Source: Escherichia coli (GTDB lineage Bacteria > Pseudomonadota > Gammaproteobacteria > Enterobacterales > Enterobacteriaceae). From it: a stretch of 64,000 nt of DNA. Under the pieces are notes generated by a model. That model made no database searches. It was given only the letters and a program-made list of their open reading frames with translations, and was not told the origin of the DNA. Shown here in pieces: positions 57,222 to 62,308 of the stretch. The stretch lies in NCBI RefSeq assembly GCF_016026235.1, contig NZ_CP065613.1; one strand, given 5' to 3'. Made by a program: the position numbers and the translations under genes. Position 1 is the first letter of the stretch. Each line of letters opens with the position of its first letter.

Positions 57222-57875
57222 CTTAAGAAGTCCGTCGGTCAGGGGGAGCATGAACTCTCCATCCTCACCGGAGTTGAGCTGGTTGTCAAACGTGGCGAGA
57301 CCATCGCACTGGTGGGCGAGTCGGGATCGGGTAAGTCAACCTTGCTGGCGATCCTCGCCGGGCTGGATGACGGCAGCAGTGGCGAAGTGAGTCTGGTGGG
57401 ACAACCGCTACATAATATGGACGAAGAAGCGCGGGCAAAGTTGCGCGCGAAGCACGTAGGCTTTGTTTTTCAGTCATTTATGTTAATTCCTACCCTTAAC
57501 GCGCTGGAAAACGTCGAGCTTCCGGCGCTGCTGCGCGGTGAGAGTAGCGCGGAAAGTCGTAACGGAGCGAAAGCGTTGCTCGAACAGTTAGGTCTGGGTA
57601 AACGTCTGGATCATCTTCCGGCACAGCTTTCCGGCGGTGAACAGCAACGAGTGGCGCTGGCACGAGCCTTTAACGGTCGACCTGATGTGCTGTTTGCCGA
57701 CGAACCCACCGGCAACCTTGACCGCCATACCGGCGATAAAATTGCCGACCTGCTGTTTTCCCTCAACCGTGAGCATGGCACCACGTTGATTATGGTGACC
57801 CACGACCTGCAACTGGCGGCACGCTGCGACCGCTGCTTACGGCTGGTGAACGGGCAGTTGCAGGAGGAAGCATGA
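57189..57875 (+). CDS. ybbA: ABC transporter ATP-binding protein YbbA
   Basis: ORF track 228 aa; Walker A GESGSGKST. Confidence 0.92.
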   Translation: MPAENIVEVHHLKKSVGQGEHELSILTGVELVVKRGETIALVGESGSGKSTLLAILAGLDDGSSGEVSLVGQPLHNMDEEARAKLRAKHVGFVFQSFMLIPTLNALENVELPALLRGESSAESRNGAKALLEQLGLGKRLDHLPAQLSGGEQQRVALARAFNGRPDVLFADEPTGNLDRHTGDKIADLLFSLNREHGTTLIMVTHDLQLAARCDRCLRLVNGQLQEEA

Positions 57876-60286
57876 TTGCACGTTGGTTCTGGCGCGAATG
57901 GCGTTCGCCGTCGCTATTAATTGTCTGGCTGGCGCTAAGCCTGGCGGTGGCCTGCGTGCTGGCGCTGGGCAATATCAGCGATCGCATGGAGAAGGGCTTA
58001 AGCCAGCAAAGCCGTGAGTTTATGGCGGGCGATCGGGCGCTGCGCAGTTCGCGCGAAGTGCCGCAAGCGTGGCTGGAGGAAGCGCAAAAGCGCGGCCTGA
58101 AAGTCGGCAAGCAGCTGACTTTCGCCACCATGACATTTGCAGGCGACACACCGCAGCTGGCGAACGTTAAAGCGGTGGATGATATCTACCCGATGTATGG
58201 CGATCTGCAAACCAATCCCCCTGGCCTGAAACCGCAGGCGGGCAGCGTATTGCTGGCCCCACGCCTGATGGCACTGCTTAACCTGAAAACGGGCGACACC
58301 ATTGACGTGGGCGATGCCACCTTGCGGATTGCCGGAGAAGTGATTCAGGAACCGGATTCCGGTTTTAACCCCTTCCAGATGGCTCCGCGTCTGATGATGA
58401 ATCTGGCGGATGTCGATAAAACCGGAGCCGTGCAGCCGGGGAGTCGGGTCACCTGGCGCTATAAATTCGGCGGCAGCGAGAACCAGCTCGACAGCTATGA
58501 GAAATGGTTGTTACCTCAGCTTAAACCCGAACAACGCTGGTACGGTCTGGAACAGGACGAAGGCGCGCTGGGGCGATCGATGGAACGCTCGCAACAGTTC
58601 CTGCTGCTTTCGGCGCTTCTGACCTTGCTGCTGGCAGTGGCAGCGGTGGCGGTAGCGATGAATCATTACTGTCGCAGTCGCTACGATCTGGTGGCGATCC
58701 TCAAAACACTGGGGGCAGGGCGAGCGCAACTGCGTAAGCTAATCGTCGGTCAGTGGTTGATGGTGCTGACGCTTTCAGCCGTTACCGGTGGGGCGATAGG
58801 CCTGTTGTTCGAAAACGTGTTGATGGTGCTGCTCAAGCCCGTTCTGCCTGCTGCACTACCGCCAGCCAGCCTCTGGCCGTGGCTGTGGGCGCTTGGCACC
58901 ATGACGGTCATCTCGCTGCTGGTGGGGCTACGACCATACCGCTTGTTGCTGGCAACGCAGCCTTTACGCGTATTACGTAATGATGTGGTAGCGAACGTCT
59001 GGCCGCTGAAGTTTTATCTGCCGATTGTCAGTGTGGTGGTTGTGCTGCTGCTCGCCGGATTAATGGGTGGCAGCATGCTGCTTTGGGCGGTGCTGGCGGG
59101 CGCGGTAGTACTGGCTTTGCTGTGCGGTGTGCTGGGCTGGATGCAGCTGAATGTACTTCGCCGCATGACGCTGAAATCGCTACCTCTGCGCCTGGCGGTT
59201 AGCCGCCTGTTACGTCAGCCGTGGTCAACGTTAAGCCAGCTTTCGGCATTTTCGCTCTCCTTTATGCTGCTGGCGCTGTTGCTGGTATTGCGTGGCGATC
59301 TGCTCGACCGCTGGCAGCAGCAGCTACCGCCAGAAAGCCCGAACTACTTTTTAATTAACATCGCCACAGAACAGGTAGCACCGCTAAAAGCGTTCCTCGC
59401 GGAACATCATATAGTCCCGGAATCGTTTTATCCGGTGGTGCGGGCGAGACTGACGGCGATTAACGGCAAGCCGACAGAAGGCAATGAAGATGAGGCGCTC
59501 AATCGCGAACTCAATCTTACCTGGCAAAATACGCGGCCCGATCATAATCCGATTGTCGCCGGTAACTGGCCGCCAAAAGCCGATGAAGTATCGATGGAAG
59601 AGGGGCTGGCGAAACGCTTAAACGTTGCCCTCGGTGATACCGTGACTTTTATGGGCGATACCCAGGAGTTCCGCGCTAAAGTGACCAGCCTGCGCAAAGT
59701 GGACTGGGAAAGTCTGCGGCCTAATTTCTATTTTATTTTCCCTGAAGGGGCATTAGACGGGCAACCGCAGAGCTGGCTTACCAGTTTCCGCTGGGAGAAT
59801 GGCAACGGCATGTTGACGCAACTCAACCGCCAGTTCCCGACCATTAGCCTGTTAGACATTGGCGCGATTTTAAAACAGGTCGGCCAGGTGCTGGAGCAGG
59901 TAAGTCGGGCGCTGGAGGTGATGGTGGTGCTGGTCACCGCCTGCGGTATGTTGCTGTTGCTGGCACAGGTGCAGGTGGGAATGCGTCAGCGTCATCAGGA
60001 GCTGGTGGTGTGGCGCACACTCGGTGCGGGGAAAAAACTGCTGCGTACCACGTTGTGGTGTGAGTTCGCCATGCTTGGGTTTGTTTCTGGCCTGGTGGCC
60101 GCAATTGGTGCGGAAACGGCACTGGCAGTGTTGCAGGCGAAAGTGTTTGATTTTCCGTGGGAGCCAGACTGGCGATTGTGGATTGTTCTGCCGTGCAGCG
60201 GTGCGCTGCTGCTGTCGCTTTTCGGCGGCTGGCTGGGCGCGAGACTGGTTAAGGGTAAGGCGCTGTTCAGGCAGTTTGCGGGGTGA
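57872..60286 (+). CDS. ybbP: ABC transporter permease YbbP (FtsX-like, duplicated)
   Basis: ORF track 804 aa; overlaps ybbA stop. Confidence 0.92.
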   Translation: MIARWFWREWRSPSLLIVWLALSLAVACVLALGNISDRMEKGLSQQSREFMAGDRALRSSREVPQAWLEEAQKRGLKVGKQLTFATMTFAGDTPQLANVKAVDDIYPMYGDLQTNPPGLKPQAGSVLLAPRLMALLNLKTGDTIDVGDATLRIAGEVIQEPDSGFNPFQMAPRLMMNLADVDKTGAVQPGSRVTWRYKFGGSENQLDSYEKWLLPQLKPEQRWYGLEQDEGALGRSMERSQQFLLLSALLTLLLAVAAVAVAMNHYCRSRYDLVAILKTLGAGRAQLRKLIVGQWLMVLTLSAVTGGAIGLLFENVLMVLLKPVLPAALPPASLWPWLWALGTMTVISLLVGLRPYRLLLATQPLRVLRNDVVANVWPLKFYLPIVSVVVVLLLAGLMGGSMLLWAVLAGAVVLALLCGVLGWMQLNVLRRMTLKSLPLRLAVSRLLRQPWSTLSQLSAFSLSFMLLALLLVLRGDLLDRWQQQLPPESPNYFLINIATEQVAPLKAFLAEHHIVPESFYPVVRARLTAINGKPTEGNEDEALNRELNLTWQNTRPDHNPIVAGNWPPKADEVSMEEGLAKRLNVALGDTVTFMGDTQEFRAKVTSLRKVDWESLRPNFYFIFPEGALDGQPQSWLTSFRWENGNGMLTQLNRQFPTISLLDIGAILKQVGQVLEQVSRALEVMVVLVTACGMLLLLAQVQVGMRQRHQELVVWRTLGAGKKLLRTTLWCEFAMLGFVSGLVAAIGAETALAVLQAKVFDFPWEPDWRLWIVLPCSGALLLSLFGGWLGARLVKGKALFRQFAG

Positions 60287-60302: not shown

Positions 60303-60602
<300 letters not shown>

Positions 60603-60703
60603 TGAACAGTGTGCATTTTGGCAATAAATCTGAAACCAACTGTCATGTCGGTTTTTTAAAGGCCGAAGGTGGTAAACCTTCGGCCTTAGCTACGTTTCCT
60701 CAG

Positions 60704-60787
60704 TTATTCAATAAACTGACGGATCAGTTCCAGCAGCGCGATTAGCGCCTTAAGCACGATGAGAACTTTATCGAGAAAAGTTTTCAT
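60704..60787 (-). CDS. candidate type I toxin: 27 aa hydrophobic/amphipathic peptide MKTFLDKVLIVLKALIALLELIRQFIE (DinQ/TisB-like)
   Basis: Hand-translated ORF with strong SD AAGGGAG 6 nt upstream of ATG, SD embedded in perfect palindrome CTCCCTTAAGGGAG; central ALIALLELIR segment resembles DinQ as I recall it; not in the ORF track (under 60 aa). Confidence 0.45.
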   Translation of the reverse strand: MKTFLDKVLIVLKALIALLELIRQFIE

Positions 60788-61046
60788 CCGTTGCTCCCTT
60801 AAGGGAGAAAGACAATCACAGCTTACCCTTACGTTGCCTGTAACTATGATTTTCTTCATGTGCTAGATGAGGACTGCCTCTCTCCAAATTAGAGCACCAG
60901 AATCAGCACCACCTGTATCCTGACCAGGACTTAAAAGTACTTTTCCGCACTGCGGTAATCCCTTGAGGCAGTATCACTACTAGCGTCGGGATTGTATCGC
61001 CAACATAGCTGTTTGAATATGTAGGCATCCTGACTTATAATTCACT

Positions 61047-61137
61047 TGCTAGATGAGGACTGTTTCATTTCTGCCCGGAACCACCAAGTCTTGGGCGGAA
61101 AAAATAAAAAAACCGACTGTCATGTCGGTTTTTTTAT
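61047..61137 (+). ncRNA. candidate antitoxin sRNA (about 90 nt), divergent from the toxin ORF; its 5' end carries a 16 nt box identical to 60861-60876 and hence complementary to the minus-strand toxin leader
   Basis: Near-consensus sigma70 promoter TTGAAT (61013-18), 17 nt spacer, TATAAT (61036-41); transcript would start about 61044-61048 and end at hairpin AACCGAC-TGTCAT-GTCGGTT plus 7 T (61111-61137). Confidence 0.45.
61111..61137. terminator. bidirectional Rho-independent terminator (A-tract, hairpin, T-tract) shared by selU (minus) and the candidate sRNA (plus)
   Basis: AAAAAAACCGAC TGTCAT GTCGGTTTTTTT read directly. Confidence 0.75.
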
Positions 61138-61198
61138 ATCTGTATTCTGGTGCAACCATTCTGTTCTCACGACAATCGCCGTTTCAGAATACCGCCCA

Positions 61199-62308
<1,110 letters not shown>

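Follow-up and report, generated by a model that had tools for sequence, protein, structure and literature searches.

The question raised by this locus is whether a perfect palindrome overlapping the Shine-Dalgarno (SD) sequence of a very short open reading frame (ORF) acts as a lock on translation or is a mere coincidence of sequence. The locus lies on the minus strand of a 64,000-nt stretch of the Escherichia coli contig NZ_CP065613.1 (assembly GCF_016026235.1), which was analysed as a whole and is called the window hereafter. Positions 60794-60807 of the window (CTCCCTTAAGGGAG) are identical to their own reverse complement, and this perfect 14-nt palindrome does contain, as the initial annotation of the stretch had reported, the SD of an ORF of 27 amino acids (aa). 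Our analysis makes it very likely that the palindrome is the SD-sequestering stem-loop of the mRNA of a DinQ-like (dql) type I toxin, in which it would form one arm of a four-element RNA switch. The in silico basis of this reading consists of the anatomy of the locus, its homology, the hairpin and the pairing between switch elements 2 and 3, both conserved and covarying, and a thermodynamic behaviour similar to that of dinQ of E. coli K-12. The closed and open states of the SD, the dependence on processing, the effect of AgrB and the cleavage by RNase III were established by experiment for K-12 dinQ only, and would extend to the window copy by analogy.

On the minus strand, the order of the elements is CUCCCUUAAGGGAG-CAACGG-AUG, with the SD AAGGGAG running from 60800 to 60794 and separated by a 6-nt spacer from the ATG start codon (60787-60785). 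The SD stem-loop (60794..60807, minus strand), a homolog of the dinQ stem-loop SL5 recognised from the sequence, its folding, the alignment with K-12 and all 17 homologs, is composed of a 5' arm CUCCC (60807-60803), a loop UUAA (60802-60799) and a 3' arm GGGAG (60798-60794) that includes the SD core GGAG. Since the palindrome has no spacer, only five of its seven pairs are able to form, and the predicted energy of the resulting 5-bp hairpin CUCCC/UUAA/GGGAG is -7.0 kcal/mol. The proposal that a hairpin occludes ribosome binding is supported by the homology with SL5 as far as the hiding of the SD is concerned, but with a stem of five pairs and not of seven. The fold prediction that had been suggested as a check was run, and places the SD hairpin in both the minimum free energy (MFE) and the centroid structures of the full leader.

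The ORF (MKTFLDKVLIVLKALIALLELIRQFIE, 60704..60787, minus strand, stop codon included) is named 'dinQ: damage-inducible type I toxin DinQ' in RefSeq by the Prokaryotic Genome Annotation Pipeline (PGAP). Its product belongs to the toxin_DinQ family of NCBIfam (NF041472, 40.9 bits for a cut-off of 30, E = 1.8e-10) and has the core ALIALLELIR in common with K-12 DinQ; Pfam holds no model for peptides of the DinQ type. Against NF041473 (DqlB, a 31-aa peptide of the type MINLLIIVLRAV...), it reaches 24.5 bits, under the cut-off of 35, and falls outside that family. The closest peptide relatives found are those of Serratia oryzae and Photorhabdus khanii (MKTLIDKVLIVLKALVALLELIRQFID and MKAFLDKVLIVLKALVALLELIRQFID). 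The candidate toxin of the initial annotation can therefore be assigned to the DinQ family by NCBIfam, with an adjoining AgrB-like antisense small RNA (sRNA) recognised by Rfam, and the locus groups a toxin gene with a divergent antisense sRNA, as in dinQ-agrB, at a second site on the chromosome. The toxicity of the 27-aa peptide would follow from its homology with DinQ, whose toxicity is attributed to Weel-Sneve 2013 as cited in PMC5066626. An identity with zorO-orzO or tisB, which the look of the peptide evokes, was rejected: Rfam OrzO-P gives 24.1 bits for a threshold of 60 in a match limited to the terminator, AgrB passes its own threshold, and NCBIfam designates DinQ. A 51-aa in-frame ORF from the ATG at 60859 was also rejected as the product, being devoid of an SD and located within the conserved leader (SL4); this reading, used by some databases, matches the mis-annotations bearing an extended N-terminus described in PMC5066626.

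The mechanism of K-12 dinQ was described by Kristiansen et al. (RNA 2016, PMC5066626) by means of SHAPE (selective 2'-hydroxyl acylation analysed by primer extension), disrupting and compensatory mutations, and S30 in vitro translation. In brief, (i) the SD (GGAG) of the full-length (+1) RNA is closed in SL5 and the RNA is untranslated, (ii) once the first 43 nt are removed, the SD mimic called 'sequence 2' becomes available for pairing with the anti-SD ('sequence 3'), which opens the SD, and (iii) AgrB bound on the sequence-2 region recloses the hairpin and yields a substrate for RNase III (PMC5066626). The same study defined the dql family on chromosomes and plasmids of Enterobacteriaceae and extended the mechanism to it by alignment. 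The palindrome of the window aligns exactly with CUCCAUCGCAUGGAG of K-12 dinQ, that is, with SL5 (C173-G187), the K-12 +1 being placed at L002:1183 according to the numbering of PMC5066626 (four uracils at U16-U19, GUG start at 195). The earlier suggestion that the SD is kept closed until processing, in the manner of type I toxins, agrees with this published mechanism of the DinQ family.

Homologs were collected from plasmids, from E. coli genomes and from a scan of one genome per species, whose search pattern was built from the start region and the ORF only, the hairpin being kept out of the search. The 17 distinct leaders obtained come from Escherichia, Salmonella and E. coli plasmids, Citrobacter, four Serratia, Photorhabdus, Xenorhabdus, Cedecea and other Enterobacteriaceae. 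Pairs were counted in a structure-anchored register, as a MAFFT alignment of the 37-nt SD segments was out of register and was not used for counting. In all 17 homologs, the last 30 nt before the start codon form a hairpin that carries the SD in its 3' arm. Tied as they are to the SD, the outer pairs p1-p4 (CUCC/GGAG) hardly vary. Further inside the stem, (i) pair p5 is A-U in 12 homologs, C-G in three (including the window and Photorhabdus, CUCCC-AUAC-GGGAG) and U-A in one, (ii) pair p6 is U-A in nine, G-C in one and C-G in one, and (iii) the loops have 3-9 nt and unrelated sequences. Judged from these aligned leaders, such a combination of compensated inner pairs and variable loops is the signature of a selected RNA helix.

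Furthermore, an independent RNAalifold prediction on the full leaders contains the SD helix, SL2 and SL4, and 17 of its 25 pairs show compensatory changes. In 16 of the 17 homologs, the anti-SD finds its best partner in an element with GGAG or GAG, located 98-102 nt before the start codon (at -121 in Cedecea), and the extension of this SD-mimic element covaries with the anti-SD across the homologs. This comparative set provides clean covariation support, over several genera, for both the SD hairpin and the competing duplex with the SD mimic. Some of the dinQ/dql loci lie on short contigs labelled Haemophilus sputorum (L009) or Lachnospiraceae (L013 and L027) and differ little or not at all from E. 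coli or plasmid sequences; these labels likely reflect contamination or carry-over of plasmids. Of these loci, L009 is counted among the 17 leaders; L013 and L027, which duplicate K-12 and L003, are not. A match in a metagenome-assembled genome of Firmicutes (L023) was discarded as a false positive of the search pattern.

Three other segments of the minus strand stand out in the 18 aligned leaders: AAGYCCUG on the 5' side of SL2 (60925-60932) and ACAGGCA in the internal loop of SL4 (60835-60841) are largely invariant, and AACGG[A/G]UG at the start codon (60785-60792) is fully conserved. In the RNAalifold structure, GUCC is paired with GG[A/G]U across the start codon; an alternative pairing of CCUG with CAGG of SL4 would create a pseudoknot. 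Both sides of these GUCC and CCUG contacts are invariant, so that they bring no covariation evidence, and such a contact lies outside the published model.

The leader of the window copy contains, in silico, all the elements of the dinQ leader, namely SL2, SL4 and four switch elements, with energies of -25.1 kcal/mol for the 1:2 pairing, -22.2 kcal/mol for 2:3 and -7.0 kcal/mol for 3:4. This 5' untranslated region (UTR) would be 197 nt long (60788..60984, minus strand), the +1 being presumably the G at 60984, as indicated by the alignment with the mapped +1 of K-12 dinQ and by the family-conserved start G[U/C]UAG. The fold of the whole leader has a z-score of -3.0. Element 1, the 5' lock (60955..60984, minus strand), pairs with the element-2 region in RNAduplex at the energy given above; its core ACUGCCUC (60972-60965) pairs with GAGGCAGU, and GCUAG (60984-60980) pairs with CUAGC to form the a/a' helix of the family, in which GCUAG/CUAGC here versus GUUAG/CUAAC represents a compensatory change. 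This pairing of element 1 appears in the MFE structure of the full-length mRNA. Element 2, the SD mimic (GGAGAGAGGCAGUC, 60872..60885, minus strand), is the alternative partner of the anti-SD, element 3 (GAUUGUCUUUCUCC, 60804..60817, minus strand), whose last four bases, CUCC, are part of the 5' arm of the hairpin. The duplex between elements 2 and 3 has 14 bp and energies of -22.2 and -21.4 kcal/mol, compared with -7.8 +/- 2.1 kcal/mol for shuffled regions, none of 200 being as good; with the value of -21.4 kcal/mol, it is the strongest among all homologs.

The antisense sRNA of AgrB type (61048..61137, plus strand), identified with Rfam and by alignment with agrA and agrB, includes its intrinsic terminator (61104-61137). 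Rfam RF02891 (AgrB) matches positions 61049-61137 of the plus strand with 53.6 bits for a gathering score of 40, and this is the only match in the window that reaches the gathering score, so that no second AgrB gene was detected there. The sRNA has a fold z-score of -5.4, and is preceded by a sigma-70-type promoter, TTGAAT-17-TATAAT (61013..61041, plus strand), with 10 of 12 matches. Its target in the toxin leader (60862..60885, minus strand) gives an RNAduplex energy of -55.5 kcal/mol, to be compared with -62.7 kcal/mol for K-12 agrB:dinQ and -47.2 kcal/mol for agrA. The first 15 nt of the sRNA are perfectly Watson-Crick paired with 60876-60862, and G-U pairs and one mismatch continue the pairing across element 2. 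The predicted cross duplexes between the window locus and the K-12 system are weak, at -35.9 and -46.6 kcal/mol. By its homology, the sRNA would function as the antitoxin of the locus. Its 5' antisense seed (61048-61070, plus strand) is predicted to lie in a weak hairpin GAUGAGG...UUUCAUU, in contrast with K-12 AgrB, for which the prediction leaves the 5' end without structure; according to the folding model, this seed hairpin could slow down the recognition of the target.

By analogy with K-12 dinQ, the switch would probably work as follows. In the primary transcript, element 1 (60984-60955) would pair around element 2 (60885-60872), leaving the anti-SD (element 3, ...CUCC(C), 60817-60803) free to fold onto GGGAG, so that the SD would be closed and no toxin made. 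After removal of the 5' end, comparable to the dinQ cut at +44, element 2 would capture the anti-SD in the 14-bp duplex, the SD would open and the 27-aa membrane peptide would be translated. The AgrB-like sRNA (61048-61137) would pair with 60885-60862, thereby covering element 2, and the hairpin would reclose; the duplex of sRNA and leader would probably constitute a substrate for RNase III. Partition-function calculations are consistent with such a scheme. Indeed, the probability P of the SD hairpin is 0.92 in the full-length mRNA of the window (0.87 in the K-12 control), 0.15-0.63 in 5'-truncated forms (0.69 in K-12) and 0.97 when the sRNA site is blocked over 24 nt (0.97 in K-12). The modelled folding of the window mRNA thus parallels that of the K-12 dinQ control and would represent a thermodynamic mimicry of a DinQ-type switch.

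Several points weigh against the interpretation of the palindrome as the SD stem-loop of such a switch. (i) The hairpin is weak (-7.0 kcal/mol) and single-sequence significance is absent: 11% of the mononucleotide shuffles of the 30 nt upstream fold equally well, 10 of 200 dinucleotide shuffles match the fold of the SD hairpin when the start codon is included (z = -1.8), and the local MFE is as low or lower at about 14% of the crude gene starts of the window. (ii) The predicted opening of the SD in the truncated forms is partial (P 0.15-0.63), and the SD might stay closed and need a standby site, as in tisB. (iii) Just 15 pairs between the sRNA and its target are of Watson-Crick type, element 2 being reached through G-U pairs and a mismatch, and blocking this perfect 15-nt site alone lowers P of the SD hairpin to 0.02, that is, to an open SD; the opposite outcomes of blocking 15 and 24 nt imply, provided that the model holds, a part for the wobble pairs that extend over element 2. 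(iv) K-12 AgrA is non-functional despite its duplex of -47.2 kcal/mol, so that duplex energy alone is no proof of antitoxin activity. (v) We infer, for the window copy, where the mRNA starts and is processed, that the peptide is toxic and that both RNAs are expressed.

Among the alternative explanations, the one that survives best, albeit unlikely, is a hairpin that remains closed in every isoform of the mRNA, with translation proceeding through a standby site or a pseudoknot, as in tisB or timP. At several cut sites, the hairpin of the 5'-truncated forms still has a P of 0.5-0.6, and the invariant segments AAGYCCUG and ACAGGCA and the start region AACGGRUG could make long-range pairs; besides, Kristiansen et al. 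stated that a standby mechanism was not excludable for dinQ, pseudoknots being outside their study (PMC5066626). In K-12 dinQ, however, SHAPE shows an open SD in the +44 RNA and translation follows the state of the hairpin (PMC5066626), and the 2:3 duplex of the window, the strongest of the homologs at -21.4 kcal/mol, covaries across the family. Both results argue against this alternative.

Another explanation, which we consider very unlikely, is that the locus is a decaying and non-expressed remnant and that the hairpin is a fossil in this strain. It is based on the polymorphism of the locus and on the poor -35 region of the toxin promoter. The toxin and sRNA genes form a cassette of about 477 bp, flanked by a terminator hairpin repeated in direct orientation, AAACCAACTGTCATGTCGGTTTTTT on the left (60633-60660) and AAACCGACTGTCATGTCGGTTTTTTT on the right (61110-61137), the right copy being the terminator of the sRNA itself. 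A cassette-free strain, LR-28 (L029), has exactly one copy of the repeat, followed by the sequence that begins at position 61138 of the window, which suggests that the cassette is gained or lost by recombination between the 25-26-bp direct repeats. In some strains, such as HR5-1 (L030), a deletion of about 104 bp (window ~60770-60873) between the microhomologies GATGAGAACT and GATGAGGACT takes away the N-terminus of the toxin with its start codon, as well as the SD palindrome and the target of the sRNA; the sRNA gene is kept and no gene is annotated. With a 561-bp query, the cassette was found in 1331 of 5426 complete E. coli genomes, in a chromosomal position every time, and 1134 genomes have the 61-nt segment of the SD and start codon; about 15% of the carriers may therefore be toxin-dead. 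FDAARGOS_943 (NZ_CP065615.1) is one of the carrier strains. Against the remnant stand the ORF, the SD, the four switch elements and the terminator of the toxin, as well as the promoter and terminator of the sRNA, which are all intact in the window, and the 1087 genomes whose 61-nt segment shares at least 99% identity with that of the window. The presence/absence polymorphism and the toxin-deleted alleles could be used for studying the selection that acts on chromosomal type I toxins.

That the palindrome is a chance by-product of an SD placed after a C/T-rich stretch, with no role, is extremely unlikely. The initial annotation had held the palindrome to be unlikely by chance, which the counts contradict: the window contains 4 perfect palindromes of at least 14 nt, for 5.0 +/- 2.4 expected from first-order Markov simulations, and the local fold is ordinary, its energy being not significant. 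The hairpin goes beyond chance because of its exact placement over the SD and its conservation with covariation among homologs, not because of single-sequence statistics: each of the 17 homologs carries a hairpin at this place in spite of differing inner pairs and loops, p5 and p6 showing compensatory changes, and the K-12 counterpart is experimentally validated. Finally, the perfect 14-bp dyad symmetry could evoke a DNA operator for a dimeric DNA-binding protein, but this is barely conceivable, as the site belongs to the transcribed leader, at a distance of 6 nt from the start codon and with no LexA-type box, and the homologs keep complementarity and not sequence or spacing (loops of 3-9 nt, swapped inner pairs), which is the pattern of an RNA helix.

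The absence of a LexA box bears on the name of the gene. No CTG-N10-CAG box occurs between 58644 and 64000, the last match in the window ending at 58643, and the LexA box of K-12 dinQ (TACTGTATGATTATCCAGTT) aligns with TTGGCGATACAATCCCGACG in the window, so that the LexA operator of dinQ proper is lacking in the window copy. For this reason the designation 'damage-inducible' is unsupported and the gene would be better filed as dinQ-like (dql); from the sequence, the RefSeq name is probably an over-annotation for the copy between ybbP and mnmH. On the toxin side, a putative -10 hexamer TACAAT (60991..60996, minus strand) aligns with TATGAT of K-12, and a promoter scan recognised no -35 element in the poor region upstream. 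The promoters of the toxin and of the sRNA are arranged back to back and overlap (60991-61041), the sRNA -35 box TTGAAT occupying the place expected for the toxin -35 box. A degenerate LexA-like half-site, CTACATATTCAAACAG (minus strand), overlaps this TTGAAT (61013-61018); its CTG is missing.

The DinQ-type family and the SD-hairpin mechanism are already known from the 2016 work on dinQ, and the gene is annotated in RefSeq; the main value of the present analysis is to close the question of the palindrome, which is the family-typical SD stem-loop of a DinQ-like mRNA. A literature search for dinQ and ybbP returned nothing on the copy between ybbP and mnmH, the 14 dql sequences of the 2016 paper not having been compared with it. 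More tentatively, and as a possibility we hold to be less probable than not by some way, this copy could be an SOS-independent module, the output of which would be set purely by the RNA switch and by a single Agr-type sRNA that reaches the SD mimic only via G-U pairs, with an undescribed long-range contact in the leader (GUCCUG with GGAU of the start region or with CAGG of the SL4 loop, as a pseudoknot). If this is true, the repeat-flanked cassette and the approximately 15% of apparently toxin-dead alleles that keep the sRNA would constitute a natural series on selection for chromosomal type I toxins.

The cassette is located between ybbP (57872-60286) and mnmH/selU (61199-62293, minus strand), followed by allS and allA. 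The toxin mRNA ends with a predicted terminator stem-loop, AAGGCCGAAGG-UUUACCA-CCUUCGGCCUU (60659..60687, minus strand), according to the sequence, the alignment with the K-12 dinQ terminator and folding. The spacer between ybbP and the cassette (60324-60607) contains repetitive extragenic palindromic sequences/bacterial interspersed mosaic elements (REP/BIME), with two full and one partial naRNA4 (RF02564) units plus ES036, and these repeats take up about 200 bp more in the window than in LR-28 and HR5-1. Escherichia sp. E1V33 (L025, NZ_RHJI01000019.1), labelled as a separate species, has the same cassette with one mismatch and one indel in 561 bp; as it also has a canonical dinQ with a LexA box (L026), both modules coexist in one genome.

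Among the known type I systems used for comparison, hok/sok of plasmid R1 has an mRNA that is likewise translationally inert by intramolecular pairing until it is processed, and its antisense RNA acts on the active form, but it is not homologous, its activation relies on a 3' trimming that disrupts a 5'-3' fold-back, and translation is coupled via mok. The tisB-istR1 system has in common with the window locus a long leader, an inert primary transcript, an activating processing at +42, an SD in a stem-loop and a divergent sRNA that acts far upstream of the ribosome-binding site; in contrast, the SD of tisB stays closed and needs a standby site and a pseudoknot, tisB is LexA-controlled, and there is no sequence homology. 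The zorO-orzO system of E. coli O157:H7 resembles the window locus by an inhibitory full-length leader of 174 nt, an active processed form and a divergent sRNA with short complementarity, and a 2024 study reported that part of the zor 5' UTR is 71-74% identical to a leader upstream of plasmid dinQ ORFs; its toxin (29 aa), however, belongs to another family, and the OrzO-P match on the window terminator is below threshold (24.1 versus 60 bits).

The likeness with dinQ-agrAB of K-12 is much more extensive and includes (i) a 27-aa peptide with the ALIALLELIR core, (ii) a leader that has about 195 nt and includes SL2 and SL4, (iii) an SD hairpin CUCC...GGAG in the same place, 6-7 nt before the start codon, (iv) an SD mimic about 100 nt upstream, with a 5' end that locks it, (v) a similar type of terminator and (vi) a divergent sRNA of AgrB type pairing over the mimic region. 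The differences concern the site (ybbP-mnmH here versus arsR-gor for dinQ, so that the window copy does not occupy the site of dinQ proper), the single sRNA gene and the absence of a LexA box versus agrA plus agrB and a LexA box, the start codon (ATG versus GTG), the hairpin (CUCCC/UUAA/GGGAG with a tetraloop versus CUCCA(U)/CGC/(A)UGGAG), the match between sRNA and target (15 Watson-Crick pairs plus wobble pairs versus about 34 nt) and the N- and C-termini of the peptide. It is to the dinQ-like genes (dqlA, dqlB) that the window copy is best compared, as it corresponds to their published definition by the similarity of its 5' UTR with that of dinQ and by the signature residues of its peptide, and as its four elements can pair 1:2, 2:3 and 3:4.

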